From a virus (lineage: Duplodnaviria; Heunggongvirae; Uroviricota; Caudoviricetes), in IMG/VR virus record IMGVR_UViG_2703719347_000005, positions 1 to 26,614 of that record: a DNA stretch of 26,614 nucleotides, one strand, 5' to 3'. Below, piece after piece: positions 2,667-11,105 of the stretch. Positions within the stretch are counted from its first letter, which is position 1. Each line of letters opens with the position of its first letter. Under the pieces are notes generated by a model. It saw nothing but the letters and a program-made list of their open reading frames with translations, did not search any database and had not been told where the DNA came from. Made by a program: the position numbers and the translations under genes.

Positions 2667-3932
2667 CTACTTAACCTGTAACAGGTCGGAGTATCTTGTA
2701 GTATAGCAAGGTGAAAGCATTTCCCGCTTCATCTGCCAGGCCGTTTGGATCCCCTGCCCTGCAAAATACAGCGTTCCCCTTCCGTCTTTCGCATTGAGAT
2801 GGTCGAGTACTTCCATCAGTTTCTCGCTATTCCGCCGTGGCACGTTATCATCAAACAAGTTTAGCTGGGCCACCCCCTGACTGTAGAAATCCCCCAGCAT
2901 CACTCCGGCTTTCTGGTAGCGATACCCGTCTCGCCAGATTGCATCGAGACATTCCGTCGCCGCTGTGATTATGTCCCGACTGTCCTGGGTCGGGGTCAAT
3001 AGTTTCACTGATGCACTATTGCCGTAGTACGGCTCATTCAGAGCAAATGGGCTGGTTTTGACGAATGCAGAGATAAAGCGGCAGTACTGATGCTCACCAC
3101 GGAGTTTCTCCGCGGCACGGGATGCGTATAAGCATATCGCCTGGCGCATCTCTTCGTAGGTGGAAATCCGCTGCCCAAAGCTGCGACTACAGACAATCTC
3201 CTGCTTTACCGGCGCGAACTCCTCAAGACCGAGACATGGCTCTCCGCGTAGCTCCCGCACGGTTCGCTCCAGTACCACATTAAAATGCTTCCGGATAAAA
3301 CGGATATCGGTATCCGCCAGTTGCAGTACAGTTTTAATCCCCATGGCCTCCAGTTTTTTACTGATGCGGCGCCCGACGCCCCAGACCTCATCCACCGGAA
3401 GCAAAGCCATCAACTTCCTCTGTCTTTCCAGGTTCGACAGATCCACCACGCCTCCGGTCTGCCGCTGCCACTGTTTCGCGGCGTGATTGGCCAGCTTCGC
3501 CAGGGTTTTAGTCTGGGCTATGCCGACGCCGACCGTTAGGTGTGTCCTGCGCAGAACCGTCTCGCGAATTTCCCTGCCAAAGTCGGTAAGGTCGCGACAA
3601 TTCCGAACTCCTGTCAGGTCGCAAAATGCCTCATCAATACTGTAAATTTCGCAGCGTGGAGAGAGTTCCTCCAGCGTTGTCATCACTCGGTTGGACATAT
3701 CGGCATAAAGCTCATAGTTGCTGCTAAACGCGATAATACCGTGCCGGCGAAACACGTCCTTTTGCTTGAAATAAGGCTCACCCATTTTGACGAAGGGCTT
3801 CGCTTCTGGCGAGCGGGCGATCACACAGCCGTCGTTGTTTGACAGAACGACCACCGGACGCCCTTTCAGGTCAGGACGAAATACGGTCTCGCACGATGCA
3901 TAAAATGAATTCACATCACAAAGCGCAAACAT
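2667..3932 (-). CDS. umuC: Translesion DNA polymerase V catalytic subunit UmuC (Y-family polymerase)
   Basis: Starts MFALCDVNSFYASCE with the SIDEAFCDLTG catalytic motif, ~421 aa. ATG is at 3930-3932, one nt after the umuD stop. The ORF-track 5' extension to 3992 is rejected. Confidence 0.9.
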   Translation of the reverse strand: MFALCDVNSFYASCETVFRPDLKGRPVVVLSNNDGCVIARSPEAKPFVKMGEPYFKQKDVFRRHGIIAFSSNYELYADMSNRVMTTLEELSPRCEIYSIDEAFCDLTGVRNCRDLTDFGREIRETVLRRTHLTVGVGIAQTKTLAKLANHAAKQWQRQTGGVVDLSNLERQRKLMALLPVDEVWGVGRRISKKLEAMGIKTVLQLADTDIRFIRKHFNVVLERTVRELRGEPCLGLEEFAPVKQEIVCSRSFGQRISTYEEMRQAICLYASRAAEKLRGEHQYCRFISAFVKTSPFALNEPYYGNSASVKLLTPTQDSRDIITAATECLDAIWRDGYRYQKAGVMLGDFYSQGVAQLNLFDDNVPRRNSEKLMEVLDHLNAKDGRGTLYFAGQGIQTAWQMKREMLSPCYTTRYSDLLQVK

Positions 3933-3933
3933 C

Positions 3934-4353
3934 TTAGCCAGCTGATTTAATGATGTACGTAACCACCCCGAACACGTCGAGAGTGTCCTCACTACCGACG
4001 ACTATTGGCGAATATGCAGGGTTCATTGGGTTAAGCTGAACCCGCGGATGCAGTTGCAGCTTCTTAACGGTGAATTCCCCATCCACAGCAGCAATAACGA
4101 TATCGCCATGAACTGCTGTTCTTGAGCTATCCACGACCAGAAGATCACCTTCCCCTATGCCTGCGTCTTTCATGCTGTCGCCGGCGGCTTTGACAAAATA
4201 CGTCGCACTTGGGTGGTTAACGAGCAACTCGTTCAGATCAATACGTTGCTCAACATAATCCTGCGCTGGACTAGGAAAGCCGCACTGCACAAGGTCACTG
4301 TACAACGGGAGCAGCATGATCTGGCGTAACTCAACGGGCGTGTAGAACTGCAT
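3934..4353 (-). CDS. umuD: UmuD, LexA-like self-cleaving accessory subunit of polymerase V
   Basis: 139 aa from ATG 4351-4353 ([13 protein letters not shown]...). Conserved Cys-Gly cleavage site (LVQCGFPSP), Ser (GDSMKD) and Lys (TVKKLQL) present. Confidence 0.9.
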
Positions 4354-4372
4354 AATAAACTCGCTCACAAAA

Positions 4373-4816: not shown

Positions 4817-4934
4817 GAAATATCTGGAAGCTTTAGGCATCTTCTTGGAAGATAGACGAGCGCAAAGACGCACACAGCAATGATGTTATGTAGTATTTTC
4901 CCCTTGAGTGTGCCTGCTCAAGGGGATTTTTTAT
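4817..4934 (+). repeat. Direct repeat copy 1 (~118 bp), homologous to 7965-8079, ending in an intrinsic terminator
   Basis: Shared GAAATATCTGGAA, a 22-bp identical core GCGCAAAGACGCACACAGCAAT (4860-4881 and 8008-8029), and a terminator hairpin with conserved loop. Confidence 0.6.
4900..4934 (+). terminator. Rho-independent terminator (plus strand) overlapping the 3' end of the invertase gene
   Basis: CCCCTTGAG-tgtgcctg-CTCAAGGGG followed by ATTTTTTAT. The minus-strand version has no U-tract, so it is not the invertase terminator. Confidence 0.6.
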
Positions 4935-5487
4935 CGCCGCATTGTACCGGCAAATTTTTGTAAATAGTCTTCACATCTACGCCTATCACATCTGCGATCT
5001 GTTGCCGAGTAGCGCCGTTCTCCAGCATTCTGCGGCACCGCTCCACCACTTCTTCAGTCATTACCCGGCGGCGGCCGCCGACTCTCCCCTGCTCCCTCGC
5101 TGCGGCTAACCCGGCTCGGGTACGCTCCACTATCAGCTCGCGCTCCATTTCTGCCAGGGCGCTCATGACGTGGAAGAAGAATCGCCCTGCTGGCGTCGAA
5201 GTGTCGATCGAGTCGGTAAGGCTGCGGAAATTCACCCCACGCGCCTGCAACTCTGACACGAGCGTAATCAGATCGCGCACGCTGCGGCCCAGCCGATCCA
5301 GTTTCCAGACCACCAGCACATCACCCGGGCGGAGCCGTCGCAGCGCTCGCTTCAAACCTGGCCGCCGGGCATTCTTCCCGCTGGCCATATCCTCGAAAAC
5401 CAGCTCACATTCTGCGCGGATCAGCGCGTTTTTCTGTAAATCGAGGTTTTGATCCCCGGTTGATACCCTCGCATAGCCAATCAGCAC
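4918..5487 (-). CDS. Serine DNA invertase, Gin/Hin/Pin/Cin family
   Basis: MLIGYARVSTGDQNLDLQ...VVWKLDRLGRS...FRSLTDSIDTSTPAGRFFFHVMSALAEMERELIVERT closely matches Gin/Pin over the catalytic domain. GTG start at 5485-5487 with SD AAGGAG 7 nt upstream. C-terminal ~45 aa diverge from what I recall of Gin/Pin. Confidence 0.9.
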   Translation of the reverse strand: MLIGYARVSTGDQNLDLQKNALIRAECELVFEDMASGKNARRPGLKRALRRLRPGDVLVVWKLDRLGRSVRDLITLVSELQARGVNFRSLTDSIDTSTPAGRFFFHVMSALAEMERELIVERTRAGLAAAREQGRVGGRRRVMTEEVVERCRRMLENGATRQQIADVIGVDVKTIYKNLPVQCGDKKSP

Positions 5488-5510: not shown

Positions 5511-5539
5511 ATTGTAAAAAGCCGCGGCCATTCGCTCAA
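5511..5539 (-). promoter_or_regulatory. Putative sigma70 promoter of the invertase gene, -35 overlapping crossover site L
   Basis: On the minus strand: -35 TTGAGC (5539-5534), 17-bp spacer, -10 TACAAT (5516-5511). The -35 hexamer lies inside the left half of the 26-bp site. Confidence 0.3.
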
Positions 5540-5556
5540 ACCCTCGTTTGGGCGAA
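5531..5556. other. gix/hix-like 26-bp recombination site L
   Basis: TTCGCTCAAACC-CT-CGTTTGGGCGAA: two 12-bp half-sites (TTC....AAACC) around a 2-bp core, as in gix/hix/cix. Exact reverse complement occurs at 11080-11105. Confidence 0.65.
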
Positions 5557-5923
5557 GCCTCTTTTTGGAGCAAAAAACATGGCCGAACTTAACCCGCCAC
5601 TGGGCACGACGACGCCGGAAATATTCATGGACAACGTTAAGCGCGCTGACGAGCTGGTTAACGGTCCGGCCGGAACGGTTGACGACCGCGGCGGTGAACC
5701 ACTCGATACCTGGCGCCAGATGATGGCGAAAAACGATGAGGTCAGGCAGAACCTGATCCCGCTCAGTAAGCAATACCAGACGCTGGCAGCGGCGCAGGCG
5801 GATATCGCGAATATTCCGGTGGGGTCGACCACGTATTACCGTAGCCCGGATGACAACGCGTTAGCTGTAGAAGTGATCAATAACGCCGGTACGCTGCAGC
5901 CTACCGGGCGGAAAATGCCATCT
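5531..5923. repeat. Left arm of ~390-bp inverted repeat (site + RBS + first ~115 codons of fibre A)
   Basis: First 48 bp are 100% identical to revcomp of 11058-11105; the next ~345 nt are roughly 85-90% identical by eye to the fibre B 5' end. Confidence 0.85.
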
Positions 5924-7918
5924 TATTCTTCGCTACGCGGGGCGAACATTCTGTTTGATGCTCTGAATGAATATTCAGCAAATGATCCTAAATTCGGTGC
6001 GTGGGACTGGTATCGCGGAGCAGTGATCACCTTCAGCACTACTGATGCCAATATTTCGTTACCGACTCCAGTGGCACAGTATTCCGGCGTATGGTCTGCA
6101 GATAAATATTATGACCTTGCCCGCCTGCCTGTAAGGGTTGGTGATAAGTTAACCTTTTCCGTGCTGGCGTGGTTCCAGGATGCCGGTGCTATGTTCCATA
6201 TTTTCTGGATGTCCACCGCTGGCGCTGTTATTTCGTCTAAATCACAGCTTGCTCTGGCCGCAGGTATAAATACGCCGGTTATCACAGATGTCATTCCATC
6301 CGGCGCATCCTACGTCAGGATCCGGGTTGAAAATACTACGGCAGGGATATTTAAGGTCGGTGCTTATGCTGCTGCGTTGGGGGCTATTCAGCCTGATTTT
6401 GTTCGCGCCACGCCGGATAAAACTTATCTGTCAGCCGTCATATCATCCGGTATTTCGGGGTTAACATCACGCGTCGATGCGCTCCAGGGAGCTATCTCTG
6501 TTGGTTATGCTTATGCAGCTGCCTGGCAAGTCGGGAAATTTATCAACCCAACTACAGGGGCCATCACTGATAACTCTGCGCTGAACTGCGCAATCATTCC
6601 GCATTCCGACGGGGATGGCTGGCTGGTGACAGCCCTTGTGACAGGATCGGCGACTGCTCTGGCCGTGTACATGAACAGCGCCGGGATGGTATTGGGTGTT
6701 GAAGGGCGGGGAACGGCAACCCCGCAGCAGTATACTAATTATCGTCTTAACGTTCCTGCCGGGACAACACAGATCGGTATAACGGGTCGTAATTCTGCGG
6801 AAATTGCTGTTAAAAAACTTGCTGTCGTTGAGACGGCCAAAGTACTGGCATCGATCGATTCTCTGGATGTCAGGGTACAAACAATAGAGGACTCTCTTGT
6901 TTATGATTTTATTAAACACGACGTCACGATTACCTCAGGAGCATATATAAACCGTGCTGATGGCAGTGTGGTGGCAAATGCTGCATTTGACTGTGCAATT
7001 TTTAATTACACAGCAGGAGACCGCTGGAAAGTCACAGCGAGGGTTAACGGCAGTGGAGTTTCGCTCGCGGTGTATATGAACAGTGCCGGGACGGTTATCG
7101 GCACCGAAGGGAACGGTACTACAGAATCGGTGGACTACACCGATTACGAGCTAACACCTCCTTCCGGCACCGCCAAAATCGGGATCACCACCCGTATAGC
7201 CGTCCCCATTATTGCCAAAAAATATGTAGTCGTTCCCGGTGGTAGCACGGTCAGTCCGTGGTCTGGAAAAGTCATCGATGTGATGGGTGACAGCAACGTT
7301 GCTTATAACAAATGGCAACCTCTTGTCGCGGCAGAACTGGGCTGCACTTTTCTGAATCACGGGGTCGGTGGTTCGAAAATAGCCAAACCGGATAGCTCCT
7401 CAACGCAAATCAGCATGTGCGACGATGTGCGAATCAATGCTCTGGATACATCGGCGGCGGCGTGGATTTGCGGTCCGTGGGCAACAAACGACTGGGCGCA
7501 AAATATTCCGATTGGAAGTATCACCGACTCAGTGAATACAACCGTTTACGGCGCGCTGAACATCATCGCTCAGAAACTGCGGGCGCGGGCCCCAACAAAA
7601 CCTATCCTGTGGGCCACGCCGTTCAATGGGGACTATGATTCTCCACGTTCAGCGGCATGGGTTGACGGTGAAACAAATGGCTATGGGCGGGTTTCTGACT
7701 ATGCAGCGGCCATACGCGCCGTGGCGTTGCGATATGGATTCCCCCTAATAGACCTTAACGCTGACTGTGGCTGGACAAAATTCAATAGCACTAGTTTTTT
7801 ATTAACCGAGGGGGATACAAATCCGTCCCGCATCCACCTCAATGCGGACGCGGGGCCTGTGCGTATTTCCTCACTGATAACCGATCGGCTTACTGCCCTA
7901 CAGAAACTGGTGGGCTAG
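5579..7918 (+). CDS. Alternative tail fibre A (779 aa): shared N-terminal anchor, three repeated ~100-aa modules, C-terminal GDSL/SGNH-like esterase domain
   Basis: N-terminus MAELNPPLGTTTPEIF... shared with fibre B for ~115 aa. C-terminal region carries MGDSNVA, HGVGGSK, WATNDW and a late His (SRIH), reading like SGNH hydrolase blocks. Currently antiparallel to the tail operon. Confidence 0.7.
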   Translation: MAELNPPLGTTTPEIFMDNVKRADELVNGPAGTVDDRGGEPLDTWRQMMAKNDEVRQNLIPLSKQYQTLAAAQADIANIPVGSTTYYRSPDDNALAVEVINNAGTLQPTGRKMPSYSSLRGANILFDALNEYSANDPKFGAWDWYRGAVITFSTTDANISLPTPVAQYSGVWSADKYYDLARLPVRVGDKLTFSVLAWFQDAGAMFHIFWMSTAGAVISSKSQLALAAGINTPVITDVIPSGASYVRIRVENTTAGIFKVGAYAAALGAIQPDFVRATPDKTYLSAVISSGISGLTSRVDALQGAISVGYAYAAAWQVGKFINPTTGAITDNSALNCAIIPHSDGDGWLVTALVTGSATALAVYMNSAGMVLGVEGRGTATPQQYTNYRLNVPAGTTQIGITGRNSAEIAVKKLAVVETAKVLASIDSLDVRVQTIEDSLVYDFIKHDVTITSGAYINRADGSVVANAAFDCAIFNYTAGDRWKVTARVNGSGVSLAVYMNSAGTVIGTEGNGTTESVDYTDYELTPPSGTAKIGITTRIAVPIIAKKYVVVPGGSTVSPWSGKVIDVMGDSNVAYNKWQPLVAAELGCTFLNHGVGGSKIAKPDSSSTQISMCDDVRINALDTSAAAWICGPWATNDWAQNIPIGSITDSVNTTVYGALNIIAQKLRARAPTKPILWATPFNGDYDSPRSAAWVDGETNGYGRVSDYAAAIRAVALRYGFPLIDLNADCGWTKFNSTSFLLTEGDTNPSRIHLNADAGPVRISSLITDRLTALQKLVG

Positions 7919-7964: not shown

Positions 7965-8079
7965 GAAATATCTGGAAATGTTTTGAATTATCCAGGAGTA
8001 TATCAACGCGCAAAGACGCACACAGCAATAATGTCATTCATCGCTTTTCCCCCGGCGTGCCTCCGGGGGGATTTTTTAG
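7965..8079 (+). repeat. Direct repeat copy 2 (homolog of 4817-4934) downstream of fibre A
   Basis: See copy 1. Stem sequence differs from copy 1 with compensatory changes (CCCCTTGAG/CTCAAGGGG versus CCCCCGG/CCGGGGG) while the loop (GTGCCT) is conserved. Confidence 0.6.
8049..8079 (+). terminator. Rho-independent terminator downstream of fibre A
   Basis: CCCCCGG-cgtgcct-CCGGGGGG followed by ATTTTTTAG on the plus strand. Confidence 0.6.
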
Positions 8080-8173: not shown

Positions 8174-8890
8174 TTACGCGATTGATAAAATCCCTTCATA
8201 GCTCTGAGTGACGAGGTCAACCATATCCATTTTTTCAGCCTGAGAGAGTATTCCGCCCGCCCACACCCCTGTCATTGCAATATCCACAGCGCCTAAAAAA
8301 TCTGACGTGATATAGGAGTAGCCAGCATAAATCGACTTATTCGGAACAGGGATTGCGCGGGCGGTAACAGCGACCTGTTCAGTCGATAACAGCTCACTGT
8401 TCGTCATTTTATGAAGCTGAACCATAGAGTTATTCACATCGAGGAAAACCAGATGGAATTTACTGGTGTCCAGTGGAGTCGCGAGGGTGGCGGTTGCTGT
8501 CCCGCTTGACCGCCCCACAATCCCCCTGATTTGAGGAATGGCCGGTTCAAAAACAAACGTATCCCCCTGCGGTTGTACAGCAGAGCCGAGATAGTTACCC
8601 ATGCCCAGCGCTCTGGTAGTGCTTTTAGGCCGGAGTAACACCATCATGGTTTTAACCGGGTTATCCGTGACTTTCAGATCATAACCCCCCGCACCAACAC
8701 CACCCGTAAACCAGTACGTGTTGATGACAGGTGCCCCCACTATGGTTGGCTCTTCCCCAAAAATAGCCCCAAAGTTCTGGCTGCCAAATGTGGCAATGCT
8801 CGCGATAGACGGCTGCGGATAACTCGAACCAATAATACAGTCATCATCCCAGACGGCATCAACATTAATAGATAATCCCTGATTAGACAT
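8174..8890 (-). CDS. Hypothetical protein (238 aa) co-transcribed downstream of fibre B; possible fibre accessory or assembly protein
   Basis: Start ATG 8888-8890 (MSNQGLSINVD...), 7 nt after the fibre B stop, with GAGG SD overlapping that stop. The ORF-track 5' extension to 8989 overlaps fibre B and is rejected. No family recognised. Confidence 0.5.
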   Translation of the reverse strand: MSNQGLSINVDAVWDDDCIIGSSYPQPSIASIATFGSQNFGAIFGEEPTIVGAPVINTYWFTGGVGAGGYDLKVTDNPVKTMMVLLRPKSTTRALGMGNYLGSAVQPQGDTFVFEPAIPQIRGIVGRSSGTATATLATPLDTSKFHLVFLDVNNSMVQLHKMTNSELLSTEQVAVTARAIPVPNKSIYAGYSYITSDFLGAVDIAMTGVWAGGILSQAEKMDMVDLVTQSYEGILSIA

Positions 8891-8897
8891 AAGTACC

Positions 8898-11057
8898 TCA
8901 CAACGTGATTTCAAACATGACGCAATAGTTATCCATACGGATAACCTCGCTATTAAGGGTAAAACTGATAATGTCGCCCTGGCTGTCACGCAGACAACCG
9001 CGCGGCCCGGTCAGGCGACCCGGTGACTGGCCGGTGGTGCCGCCGTGAAAGGCATACTGAAGAATGGCCCCGGCAGGGATATCCGCTGCCGTTGAGACAG
9101 TCACCGCGTCATAACGGATATTGAGGCTGGTCAGCGGGATAATCGCACGTGTGTCAGGGTGCAGTAGCCGGAAACCATAATTACCCGGATCAGAAACAAT
9201 GCTGGTATCAAAGCTCAGCCGACCCACCGGATTCAGCCACACCGTAGCGGCGCGGCCCTGGCGTTGATGACTAACTGGCATCAGTGGTTTTGCCGCTTTG
9301 CCGTCAACCAGCGCCCGCTTTTCCATCACGGAAATATAAAGCCCCTGAATATAGGAACTTCTGGCGGTGAGGTGTGCGCCATCCGTGTAATCGTGAATGT
9401 ACATCGGGTTCGTGAGATAGACATTTTCGCGTGTCTGCGCCAGCTCCAGCAGCGCCATCGGAATGGTGGGATAGGCTGTGTTCGGCGTCCGGTTTATCCA
9501 GCTGCTGAACTGATAAACAAAAATCGGCACATGGACTTCTTCGCCGCACACAGCTGAGGCGTGGGCATCGATCCGCTGTTGCATGGTGTCGAAAATAGCC
9601 TGATAGTCTGCTTTGGTGGTGCCTTTCGTCTGGTCTGCTTCGCCCTGCATCCAGTACATCGCCACAGGCCGGTAGGTTTTCCCGAGCTCCTGAGCGCGGG
9701 CGTAACCATAACTGATATCATCGAAAACTCGCTGAATGTACTTTCCGGGATACGCCGCCAGCACATCAATGGGTTGACCGCCCTCCGCCGGAACAGAACC
9801 CAGAATGATCAGATCATCCGGGTTAAAGCCATAGTTCTCGGCAATCATCAGTTCGTACCAGCCGCGAATGCTGGCCCCCATTGGGGTTTCCCATGCCTGG
9901 CCGTTATCGGTGTTTTTATACGTCTCGACGTAGGGAACCAGCTGAGCATGGTTTTCTGCCGAAGTGCCGGAGCCATCCTGCGCCCGTGCCCCACCGATAA
10001 AACGCAATGCGGTATACAGCGCGGCTATCGTAATCAGGGCCTGAGTATTCACGCCAGCGGCAAGCGATTGTCCGTAACCGATTTTATGGGCAATATCCGG
10101 CAGGCGTGAGTAAATGGACTGATTAAAATAGCGCAGAAATTCAGGGGAAATAATCGCTTTAACTTCCAGAGTTTCGGCTTTCAGCGATTTTACCTCTCCA
10201 TGATTCGCTTCAATTTTCCCCGCAGCAAATGCCCCGTTTTTTTTGATACCCACAGCCGGACGATTTAACGTATCACGCCACGCCATAACGAAATCGCGGA
10301 ATGTCGCAGTAGAAATGCTGGCGTTGGCTGGTAACCCTAAGATACTGGCAATCGTAAGATTGTTGATCTCAGCCTTCCCTGATTTCAGTACCCCTTTTTT
10401 ATTAATGGCAAAACAAAGCCGTTTAAGGGTGTCATAAACTGAAACAGCGTTACCGTCAGCCACTAATGATAAAGCAGAATTCCCGATATTCAGACGTGAT
10501 GACGAGATGATCGACGAAATAAATTCATCCGCTGAGAGCTTTTTTAATTCTGCTTTATTCGCCTTAATCCACCCGGCAAGCAACCGGCCCGCCTCATCCA
10601 GCCCTACCGAATAATTTTTTCGTTCATCCATAAAGGCAAGAGACATACCCGCTGGCGCATTCTGGCTGAACGTTGCTCTGATCAAATCAGTCATGATATT
10701 GACCAGCTCCTGAGATGGCATTTTCCGCCCGGTAGGTTGCAGCGTCCCGCCGTTATTCATGTACTCGTCCGCCAGCGCCCAGACGTCCTGGCTGCGAACA
10801 TAGGTCGTGGAGCCAACGGGGATATTCGCGATATCTGCCTGCGCTGCCGCCTCATTCATATACTGCTTGCTGAGTGGGATCAGGTTCTGCCTGACCTCAT
10901 CGTTTTTCGCCATCATCTGGCGCCAGGTATCGAGCGGTTCACCTGCGCGGTCGTTAATCGTTCCGGCCGGACCGTTCACCAGTTCGTCAGCGCGCTTGAC
11001 GTTATCCAGGAATATTTCAGGCGTCGTCGTTCCCAAAGGCGGGTTAAGTTCGGCCAT
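8898..11057 (-). CDS. Alternative tail fibre B (719 aa): shared N-terminal anchor, SASA-like acetylesterase domain, extra C-terminal domain
   Basis: N-terminal ~115 aa shared with fibre A. Residues ~325-585 carry YGQSLAAG, WMQGEAD and DGAHL, consistent with SASA/DUF303-type SGNH esterases. Colinear with the tail operon, so this is the presumably expressed fibre. Confidence 0.7.
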   Translation of the reverse strand: MAELNPPLGTTTPEIFLDNVKRADELVNGPAGTINDRAGEPLDTWRQMMAKNDEVRQNLIPLSKQYMNEAAAQADIANIPVGSTTYVRSQDVWALADEYMNNGGTLQPTGRKMPSQELVNIMTDLIRATFSQNAPAGMSLAFMDERKNYSVGLDEAGRLLAGWIKANKAELKKLSADEFISSIISSSRLNIGNSALSLVADGNAVSVYDTLKRLCFAINKKGVLKSGKAEINNLTIASILGLPANASISTATFRDFVMAWRDTLNRPAVGIKKNGAFAAGKIEANHGEVKSLKAETLEVKAIISPEFLRYFNQSIYSRLPDIAHKIGYGQSLAAGVNTQALITIAALYTALRFIGGARAQDGSGTSAENHAQLVPYVETYKNTDNGQAWETPMGASIRGWYELMIAENYGFNPDDLIILGSVPAEGGQPIDVLAAYPGKYIQRVFDDISYGYARAQELGKTYRPVAMYWMQGEADQTKGTTKADYQAIFDTMQQRIDAHASAVCGEEVHVPIFVYQFSSWINRTPNTAYPTIPMALLELAQTRENVYLTNPMYIHDYTDGAHLTARSSYIQGLYISVMEKRALVDGKAAKPLMPVSHQRQGRAATVWLNPVGRLSFDTSIVSDPGNYGFRLLHPDTRAIIPLTSLNIRYDAVTVSTAADIPAGAILQYAFHGGTTGQSPGRLTGPRGCLRDSQGDIISFTLNSEVIRMDNYCVMFEITL

Positions 11058-11105
11058 GTTTTTTGCTCCAAAAAGAGGCTTCGCCCAAACGAGGGTTTGA
11101 GCGAA
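10713..11105. repeat. Right arm of ~390-bp inverted repeat (fibre B 5' end + RBS + site R)
   Basis: Reverse complement matches 5531-5923; outermost 48 bp are identical. Confidence 0.85.
11080..11105. other. gix/hix-like 26-bp recombination site R (inverted relative to site L)
   Basis: TTCGCCCAAACG-AG-GGTTTGAGCGAA on the plus strand, the exact reverse complement of site L. Confidence 0.65.

Follow-up and report, generated by a model that had tools for sequence, protein, structure and literature searches.

Tandem predicted beta-sandwich modules between the anchor and the SGNH esterase domain of an invertible phage tail fibre: candidates for carbohydrate binding

Pfam, NCBIfam and PHROGs contain no model for the region between the anchor and the esterase of SGNH fibres, and the fibre A gene of the viral DNA analysed here (26,614 nucleotides, hereafter the window) raises the question of what this region consists of and whether it binds sugar. 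An earlier note, made from the sequence alone, had described it as a series of duplicated modules, and had proposed that they are carbohydrate-binding modules preceding an esterase. The parts of fibre A and of its surroundings are listed in Table 1; the conversion of residues into nucleotides in that note was correct (residue 326 at nt 6554 and residue 552 at nt 7234). Both termini of fibre A match PHROG tail-fibre families, and its RefSeq annotation in E. coli is SGNH/GDSL hydrolase family protein, while none of the Pfam, NCBIfam and PHROG models covers residues 293-556. It must be noted that three related modules before an esterase tip are an ordinary design for a phage fibre, and the understanding of how phage fibres work is unchanged by them.

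Table 1. Features of the fibre A gene and its flanks (positions in the window)
Feature	Position	Strand	Evidence and remarks
Serine DNA invertase, adjoining fibre A	4918..5487	-	phrog_125 E 1e-84; Pfam Resolvase 1.5e-49 and HTH_7
26-bp 12-2-12 palindrome TTCGCTCAAACC CT CGTTTGGGCGAA, outer edge of inverted repeat	5531..5556	.	Probable invertase crossover; partner 11080-11105
Fibre A gene, 779 aa	5579..7918	+	ORF list; order anchor, M1, M2, M3, SGNH esterase
N-terminal anchor domain, aa 1-125, common to alternative fibre B	5579..5953	+	phrog_9750 over aa 1-118, E 9e-74
M1, aa 145-264, third copy, diverged; predicted as beta-sandwich alone, no heptad helix before it	6011..6370	+	Iterated HMM i-E 3.6e-6
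M2 unit, aa 293-418; amphipathic helix (~aa 294-307), then beta-sandwich (predicted)	6455..6832	+	HMM envelope 293-418, 200 bits; M3 alignment
M3 unit, aa 427-553; helix (aa 428-439), then 9-strand beta-sandwich (predicted)	6857..7237	+	HMM envelope 427-553, 215 bits
SGNH/GDSL esterase domain, C-terminal, aa 557-779	7247..7915	+	PF13472 (Pfam match aa 571-757), E 2.4e-9
Terminator-like GC hairpin with T-run, downstream of fibre A	8047..8071	+	Consensus scan: 9 pairs, 7 G-C, then TTTTTT

M2 and M3 are clear tandem duplicates. Two related modules had been claimed at about residues 326-417 and 454-552, and they were recovered as homologous units: their Smith-Waterman score was 250, against 32 ± 5.6 for 300 shuffles (z = 39), with 50 identities over 100 ungapped residues (318-417 vs. 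453-552), and a single HMM recognized both (scores in Table 1). The motifs quoted for them (LAVYMNSAG.V.G.EG.GT, IGIT and FHIFWMSTAGAVISS) are present in the sequence. The units are nevertheless longer than first stated, given that each starts with a helix (LTSRVDALQGAIS in one copy, LDVRVQTIEDSLV in the other), and the boundaries were therefore set at the residues indicated in Table 1. The similarity reported at nucleotide level holds only weakly, since a single 32-nt patch at 84% was significant whereas overall identity was 55% and fell to 36% at third codon positions; therefore, the duplication is old. That the internal similarity arose by chance or composition could be argued from the self-BLASTP with default reporting, which returned only the identity alignment, and from the DNA repeat finder, which detected no long direct repeat in the fibre A gene. 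Because of that self-BLASTP outcome, segments were aligned against each other with shuffles, and the self-alignment proposed as a check then gave the internal repeat. The shuffle z-score, the ungapped identity and the HMM bits rule chance out, the same tandem layout being found in hundreds of homologues, and we give this explanation a negligible probability.

The more diverged third copy, placed upstream at about residues 165-265, was borne out by profiles only, as M1. Its pairwise alignments with M2 and M3 were not significant (z of 0.3 and 2.2 against shuffles). However, M1 scored 25 bits with a family HMM built without fibre A, the maximum for shuffles being 9 bits (0 of 2000 reached the M1 score), and hhalign of the M1 alignment against the module alignment gave a probability of 92% (E 5e-7, 82 columns). 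Reciprocally, the M1 HMM matches M3. As judged from these profiles, M1 is homologous to M2 and M3, with the homology spanning only its C-terminal ~80 residues.

The modules belong to a family which is nameless in the domain libraries searched. Fibre A modules matched no curated CBM family in Pfam or NCBIfam, and when 48 family modules were compared with Pfam no consistent family emerged, CBM_6 being touched by just one of them (E 0.0018). Fucose-lectin (RSL/BambL) matches obtained in a sequence-profile search of the PDB were judged spurious, with single-stretch i-E values near 1, because the whole-sequence score sums weak repeated matches. A word-indexed protein search retrieved only close relatives (nine with M2 plus M3 as query, eight with M1), and the family became apparent only with an exhaustive profile search, in which it comprised 269 representatives at E ≤ 1e-3 (clusters at 50% identity). 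They come from several bacterial phyla, with members in Enterobacteriaceae, Novosphingobium, Arcicella and Gorillibacterium, as well as in many metagenomic contigs. Three Klebsiella phages (KpV2811, ZX4 and RCIP0114) have SGNH fibres in which profiles detect a module, while tblastn with M2 plus M3 found nothing in 50,697 phage records, a pattern search of genome contigs gave eight stretches of which none was confirmed, and no copy was seen in fibre B or in any other reading frame of the window. Relatives carry one to five copies per protein, usually two to five, with a median start-to-start spacing of 135 residues, and an SGNH esterase nearly always follows (Lipase_GDSL_2 was matched by 24 of 60 members, and the SGNH motif columns are nearly invariant). 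Module and esterase identities are partly uncoupled: P0008 is 91% identical in the SGNH domain and 45% in the module, and P0011 shows the reverse (51 and 64%, respectively). The possibility that modules always diverge faster than the esterase was rejected, SGNH identity being the higher in 14 of 22 comparisons with clear cases in both directions. This variation in copy number and module sequence, partly independent of the esterase, fits module shuffling.

With respect to fold, the structure models place the modules among jelly rolls of the CBM4/16/22/61 type and the sandwiches at the C-terminus of Klebsiella and CBA120 tailspikes, clearly for M1 and weakly for M3. The AlphaFold2 model of M1 (mean pLDDT 66, core 75-93) had 103 PDB matches at E ≤ 1e-3 with Foldseek, dominated by CBM16, CBM4, CBM22, CBM61, a porphyran CBM and tailspike C-terminal sandwiches, and including CBM22-1-CBM22-2 (4xup). 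The best ones were CBA120 TSP4 (5w6h; 6e-7) and the K2-2 tailspike (8iq9; 8e-6), followed by CBMs, on which this model of modest confidence superposed with TM ~0.5, rmsd ~4-5 Å and E of 2e-5 to 1e-4. The M3 model (pLDDT 95.3, pTM 0.85) consists of a helix and nine strands. Its best PDB match was weak (E 3.5e-3), and its list (E 0.003-0.1) lies in the same neighbourhood as that of M1, with K2-2, CBM4-2 and CBM35/6/22, the best CBM matches having E of 0.013-0.05 and low TM. M3 strongly matches predicted phage proteins (best BFVD match E 4.6e-8, TM 0.78), many of them annotated as GDSL, hydrolase or phosphoesterase, and one BFVD match is the neck passage structure of a lactococcal 936-group phage (E 1.2e-4, TM 0.50). 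The helix of M3 and M2 is short and amphipathic, of about two heptads, and a similar one starts most modules of the wider family: in 341 module instances, hydrophobic residues make up 77-91% of HMM columns 2, 6, 9, 13 and 16, the columns in between being polar, as in a heptad (a/d) pattern.

The domain that follows the modules is, on sequence evidence, supported as a genuine SGNH/GDSL esterase domain. PF13472 scored 38.4 bits over a cut-off of 32.9, GDSL-like proteins were matched in the PDB (7bxd, 2e-9; 3dc7, 2e-8), and the motif residues are G570-D571-S572 (block I), G597-G598-S599 (II), N637-D638 (III) and H753 (V). The Asp of the DxxH motif, three residues before the catalytic His, is absent from fibre A (D746-TNPSRI-H753), unlike in most family members, which have DxxHP.

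A DNA-invertase switch carries two alternative fibres, of which fibre A is one. Several features of a Hin/Gin/Cin/Pin-type switch were found, namely a serine invertase, a segment bounded by an inverted repeat (393 nt, 85% complementary) and both orientations in natural genomes, L005, L008 and L010 being inverted relative to the window and to L006, L007 and L009. The orientation breakpoint maps to 67 nt (-48 to +19 from the ATG) over which the two arms do not differ, and fibre B matches phrog_9750, the family of the fibre A anchor. In phage Mu (gene S) and P1, the invertible segment does not include the N-terminal part of the fibre gene, which is constant. The layout differs here, where the segment contains two complete fibre genes because the probable crossover lies 23-48 nt upstream of each ATG.

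Do the modules bind sugar? Of the earlier proposal, the repeated sandwiches upstream of an SGNH/GDSL domain (PF13472) and, more clearly for M1 than for M3, their CBM-like fold as modelled are supported, while membership in a named CBM family is not. Carbohydrate binding itself we infer, with no module in a named CBM family, a weak best match of M3 in the PDB and, in K2-2, the closest solved analogue in the literature, a sugar bound elsewhere in the protein. The explanation that we favour, with a probability of roughly 0.55, is that fibre A serves a temperate siphophage, integrated in E. coli, as its receptor-binding tail fibre, in which an anchor of about 125 residues is followed by three homologous sandwich modules and a C-terminal SGNH acetyl-esterase. 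In the trimer, the helices may come together along the fibre axis as short coiled-coil segments, with the three sandwiches of each unit packing around it to give a beaded shaft of up to nine lectin-like modules. These would bind weakly and multivalently to host surface polysaccharide (capsule or O-antigen) and would keep the esterase tip on its substrate during removal of O-acetyl groups, as with the esterase fibres of other phages, and shuffling of modules could tune reach, avidity or specificity. Against sugar binding it must be considered that the conserved columns of the module are mostly Gly, Pro and core hydrophobics and that no residues of a binding site were recognizable, in addition to the weak M3 matches, the lack of a Pfam CBM model matching the family, and the fact that the C-terminal sandwich of K2-2, a top structural neighbour, is not its sugar site. 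The missing Asp of the SGNH domain counts against this explanation as well, as does the location of fibre A, which in the window occupies the position remote from the tail operon and before which a consensus scan found no promoter-like site on the same strand.

The main rival is a purely structural role, in which the modules would be trimerisation or folding nodes and spacers that build the shaft and set how far the esterase reaches, without binding a ligand themselves. The conserved heptad helix before most modules, the mostly structural nature of the conserved residues and the one to five copies at a regular spacing of ~135 residues, as for beads on a shaft, are in line with this role, and so is K2-2, whose helix and sandwich form a triangular prism discussed as a folding nucleus. 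On the other side, true carbohydrate-binding modules dominate the fold neighbourhood, structurally similar modules occur in phage adhesion devices where CBMs have been identified, and the enzyme that accompanies the modules is almost always a carbohydrate esterase; we consider a structural role possible, yet less probable than polysaccharide binding. Another role, which we regard as improbable, is that of docking platforms for other virion proteins, such as the branching adaptors of G7C and CBA120, or of binders of a protein receptor. The best PDB neighbour of M1 is indeed a CBA120 tailspike, which belongs to a branched complex, and the SGNH fibres of G7C make branched assemblies (PMC9569702). 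However, the only fibre-like gene adjoining fibre A is the alternative fibre B, which lacks the module and, since it has the same anchor domain, is a competitor of fibre A for one site and not a partner that docks on it.

Apart from these roles, the definition of the modules gives a domain boundary map for recombinant constructs, supplies a candidate determinant of specificity and provides an alignment to seed a new domain family from the 269 clusters. A broader reading, speculative and in our opinion unlikely, is that the helix-plus-sandwich unit constitutes an unnamed glycan-binding family of several phyla, tied to SGNH esterases, in which the modules rather than the esterase would give specificity, and their copy number and shuffling would set host range. 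If so, the invertase switch would let the prophage change back and forth between two fibres of the esterase type that differ in specificity.

Among the nearest known systems are the SGNH fibres (G7C gp63.1, and 164_08-KL2 and 174_38-KL55 of Klebsiella; PMC13123978), which, like fibre A, have an anchor at the N-terminus and an SGNH domain at the C-terminus and were recently reported to rank among the receptor-binding proteins most often found in temperate Klebsiella phages (PMC13123978). Two SGNH tail fibres of Klebsiella prophages hydrolyse pNP-acetate, and G7C gp63.1 deacetylates LPS (PMC13123978). In Klebsiella, Raoultella and E. coli, proteins closely homologous to fibre A carry the annotation SGNH/GDSL hydrolase. 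The known SGNH fibres have been described by their SGNH domain and a "brush-like" C-terminus, and the terms tandem, sandwich, jelly and carbohydrate-binding do not appear in PMC13123978. Fibre A differs from them in lacking the DxxH Asp, and a PDB search gave no sequence match between it and G7C gp63.1.

The predicted beta-sandwiches of the modules, M1 more clearly than M3, resemble in fold and size the galactose-binding-domain-like CBMs of CAZy (CBM4, CBM16, CBM22, CBM61 and CBM6/35), from which units of the M2/M3 type differ in carrying an N-terminal helix of coiled-coil type. Tandem CBMs adjoining a carbohydrate-active enzyme are a common layout. For M1 and M3 alike, the highest-ranking PDB neighbours are the tailspike C-terminal sandwiches (K2-2, 8iq9/8iqe; Kp7 gp52; Depo32; CBA120 TSP4). 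The K2-2 domain likewise starts with a short helix and continues as a two-sheet sandwich, is packed with three-fold symmetry around the axis, and has been described as a trimeric prism. The likeness is structural only, at 9-16% identity, and those sandwiches are single and terminal, after a beta-helix depolymerase, whereas the units of fibre A are internal, repeated two to three times and placed before an esterase. Distant, purely structural and from a different host group is the likeness of M3 to the 936-group neck passage structure, a link through one predicted structure and through PMC6669499, where CBMs are identified in that structure. The CBMs of lactococcal adhesion devices (936-group neck passage structure; Tuc2009 BppA) and the modules of fibre A are nevertheless alike in being beta-sandwiches added to phage tail proteins, and the BppU_N baseplate anchor of lactococcal-type phages is also present in 3 of 60 members of the module family.

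The tail-fibre protein fibre A was divided into three recognisable parts by PHROGs and Pfam. Its N-terminus is typical of tail fibres (phrog_9750, aa 1-118, E = 9e-74; PHROGs), the tail-fibre family phrog_38670 matches aa 65-277 (PHROGs), and an SGNH/GDSL hydrolase lies at the C-terminus (PF13472, aa 571-757, 38.4 bits with a cut-off of 32.9 bits; Pfam). The PDB sequence matches were GDSL-like proteins (7bxd, 2e-9; 3dc7, 2e-8). Residues of the SGNH catalytic motifs (Ser572, Gly598, Asn637 and His753) were present, and the domain lacks the Asp usually found at position -3 from the His. The stretch aa 293-556 was not covered by any model of Pfam, PHROG or NCBIfam.

Features of the fibre region and the adjoining prophage edge
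Feature	Position	Strand	Remarks
UmuC-like Y-family polymerase	2667-3992	-	PHROG 'DNA polymerase'; Pfam IMS in related loci
S24 peptidase, UmuD-like	3934-4368	-	
Serine invertase gene	4918-5487	-	adjoins fibre A
Inverted repeat, 393 nt	5531-5923 / 10713-11105		bounds invertible segment
Palindrome TTCGCTCAAACC CT CGTTTGGGCGAA, 26 bp, 12-2-12	5531-5556 and 11080-11105		outer edge of each repeat arm
Fibre A gene	5579-7918	+	ORF, 779 aa
ORF between convergent fibre genes	8174-8989	-	downstream of fibre B; 238 aa as called in related loci
Fibre B	8898-11057	-	anchor domain common to fibre A

The earlier note, whose residue-to-nucleotide mapping on fibre A was correct, had described two related modules in this protein, and these are real. 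Alignment of aa 291-430 with aa 431-560 scored 250, compared with 32 ± 5.6 for shuffles (z = 39), and the remaining domain pairs of fibre A scored at background. The two modules, M2 and M3, share 50 of 100 residues without gaps (aa 318-417 and 453-552). Since the similarity continues into a helix on the upstream side (LTSRVDALQGAIS / LDVRVQTIEDSLV), each unit is approximately 130 aa long (aa 293-418 and 427-553). The nucleotide-level similarity also noted earlier held for one significant patch only, 32 nt in the AVYMNSAG codons; overall DNA identity was 55% (36% at third codon positions) and the repeat finder gave no long DNA repeat in the gene. Given this low identity and single patch, the duplication is old as judged from the sequences, in agreement with the homologous protein P0011, whose modules 2 and 3 pair by position with M2 (54-57%) and M3 (64%).

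A more diverged third copy had been proposed upstream. Pairwise comparison of this segment, M1, with M2 and M3 was not significant (z = 0.3 and 2.2). A family HMM built from homologues, with fibre A left out, detected aa 145-264 (i-E = 3.6e-6) and gave 25 bits for the isolated segment, 2000 shuffles peaking at 9. The M1 alignment, which takes in distant relatives from Klebsiella phages NDO71, KpV2811 and RCIP0114, matched the module alignment with an hhalign probability of 92% (E = 5e-7, 82 columns), and reciprocally the M1 HMM found M3. Profile evidence therefore supports M1 as a third, diverged copy, as proposed. It has the C-terminal seven strands in common with the M2/M3-type modules and no preceding heptad helix.

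The AlphaFold2 model of M3, computed from an alignment of 48 sequences, had a pLDDT of 95.3 and a pTM of 0.85, with a helix at aa 428-439 followed by nine strands. Its PDB matches were not strong (best E = 3.5e-3); over-represented in the list were C-terminal sandwiches from the Klebsiella tailspikes K2-2, Kp7 gp52, Depo32 and DpK2, as well as CBM4, CBM35, CBM6, CBM22 and CBM36. Among predicted viral structures, 14 matches reached E ≤ 1e-3, led by an uncultured siphovirus 'hydrolase' (E = 4.6e-8, TM 0.78, rmsd 2.5 Å); the others included several GDSL or phosphoesterase proteins and one lactococcal 936-group neck passage structure. The M1 model was of lower confidence (mean pLDDT 66, core 75-93) and had 103 PDB matches at E ≤ 1e-3 with TM of about 0.5, including CBA120 TSP4, K2-2 TSP, a porphyran-binding CBM, CBM16, CBM4, CBM61 and CBM22, together with Cry toxin domains and the Fbs1 sugar-binding domain. 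Because the two PDB lists overlap and the strands correspond one to one in the hhalign register, the predicted fold of the modules is a CBM-like jelly-roll sandwich. By sequence, the module is not a member of any curated CBM family. The analyses show fibre A to begin with an anchor, to continue with three homologous CBM-like sandwiches, of which two have a heptad helix in front, and to end in an SGNH domain with its catalytic residues.

When 1.84 billion representatives were searched exhaustively with the profile, a module family of 269 proteins emerged at E ≤ 1e-3, mostly with 2-5 matched stretches each. Among 150 retrieved members there were 1 to 5 modules per protein. The median start-to-start spacing was 135 aa (IQR 129-141). 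Median identity was 34% between adjacent modules vs 21% across all pairs, and 118 of 320 modules had their closest relative within the same protein, so that module duplication has been recurrent. Helix columns 2, 6, 9, 13 and 16 were 77-91% hydrophobic with polar residues in between (341 instances), a column pattern that reads as heptad a/d. Lipase_GDSL_2 was matched in 24 of 60 full-length members and the BppU_N baseplate anchor in three; in the family SGNH alignment the GDS, GGS, GxND and DxxHP columns were nearly invariant. Arcicella, Novosphingobium and Gorillibacterium supply the named members, whose annotation goes no further than hypothetical or 'beta strand repeat-containing'; several lie on contigs of 37-46 kb. 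The homologues P0008 and P0021 share 91 and 74% SGNH identity with fibre A and only 45% in their modules, and the reverse holds for P0011 and P0048, whose modules are closer to fibre A than their SGNH domain; the histories of module and esterase are thus partly uncoupled.

In tail fibres of lytic Klebsiella siphophages (KpV2811 gp10, ZX4 gp53 and RCIP0114_00026; loci L002, L004 and L003) the anchor motif of fibre A recurs together with a domain like M1 and a single clear module, so the architecture is not confined to prophages. In KpV2811 this module spans aa 321-422 (i-E = 1.5e-9 with the family profile A4), and GDS, GTND and DGIHP motifs were read by eye at the C-terminus. Pairwise tblastn of M2+M3 against 50,697 phage records gave no match.

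With respect to function, we consider it somewhat probable (about 0.55) that the modules bind glycan. Fibre A would be a trimer, its helices making up coiled-coil segments along the axis and the sandwiches arranged around them; the modules would bind the host surface polysaccharide multivalently and hold the esterase on its O-acetylated substrate. Klebsiella prophage SGNH fibres are active esterases (PMC13123978), G7C gp63.1 deacetylates LPS (PMC13123978; PMC9569702), and lactococcal phages of the 936 group have been found to carry CBMs in their neck passage structure (PMC6669499). The main alternative, that the modules are purely structural, is possible and less probable. It is favoured by the K2-2 C-terminal helix and sandwich, which form a trimeric prism discussed as a folding nucleus, and by the sugar groove of that tailspike, which sits in the beta-helix and not in the C-terminal sandwich (PMC10936425); moreover, the conserved module residues are mostly Gly, Pro and core hydrophobics. 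The observation in the earlier note is correct, and its reading as repeated carbohydrate-binding modules upstream of an esterase domain is reasonable, with the binding putative. The repeat belongs to a familiar class, the CBM-like beta-sandwich modules of phage receptor-binding proteins, as a new member without a name; its practical interest is moderate and it holds little surprise.

The window is an E. coli prophage. Strains such as 5CRE51 and MRSN346595 carry the fibre A gene with 100% identity, and among 5426 complete genomes 12 have it in full length; in the public assembly collection, 455 indexed blocks contain the exact protein. The UmuC-like polymerase and S24 peptidase sit just past the invertase, at the prophage edge; in loci L008 and L010 an ISL3 transposase is inserted between this pair and the invertase. 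Two related E. coli loci carry variants of this prophage: in L009 the neighbourhood of gene J is replaced by a reverse transcriptase of the group II intron type (RVT_1 + GIIM), and in L010 J is shorter (961 aa).

The invertible segment was found in both orientations among natural E. coli genomes, fibre A coming after J in L005, L008 and L010, and fibre B in L006, L007, L009 and the window. In the window it is fibre A that sits distal to the tail operon, with no promoter-like site upstream on its strand in the window scan and a strong terminator-like hairpin 3' of the gene. Fibre B has no copy of the M1-M3 module. It gave a weak, below-cut-off Pfam match to SASA (sialic-acid-specific acetylesterase; aa 452-568, E = 0.0055), from which the switch may alternate between two different esterase-type fibres. 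The ORF between the fibre genes had no match in Pfam, PHROG or NCBIfam and could be a candidate fibre assembly chaperone for fibre B.

The orientation breakpoint maps to 67 nt identical between both repeat arms, and the palindrome, which we take to resemble hix/gix/cix-type crossover sites, forms the outer 26 of these, 23-48 nt 5' of each ATG. It was also flagged by the scan as a hairpin followed by a T-run, and a promoter-like site on the minus strand (5539-5511), a possible promoter of the invertase gene, overlaps it. As the palindrome lies upstream of each ATG, both fibre genes are wholly within the segment, complete with ribosome-binding site and ATG. In Mu and P1 the constant 5' part of the fibre gene is kept outside the segment; here, in contrast, two complete fibre genes lie inside it and there is no constant outside part.
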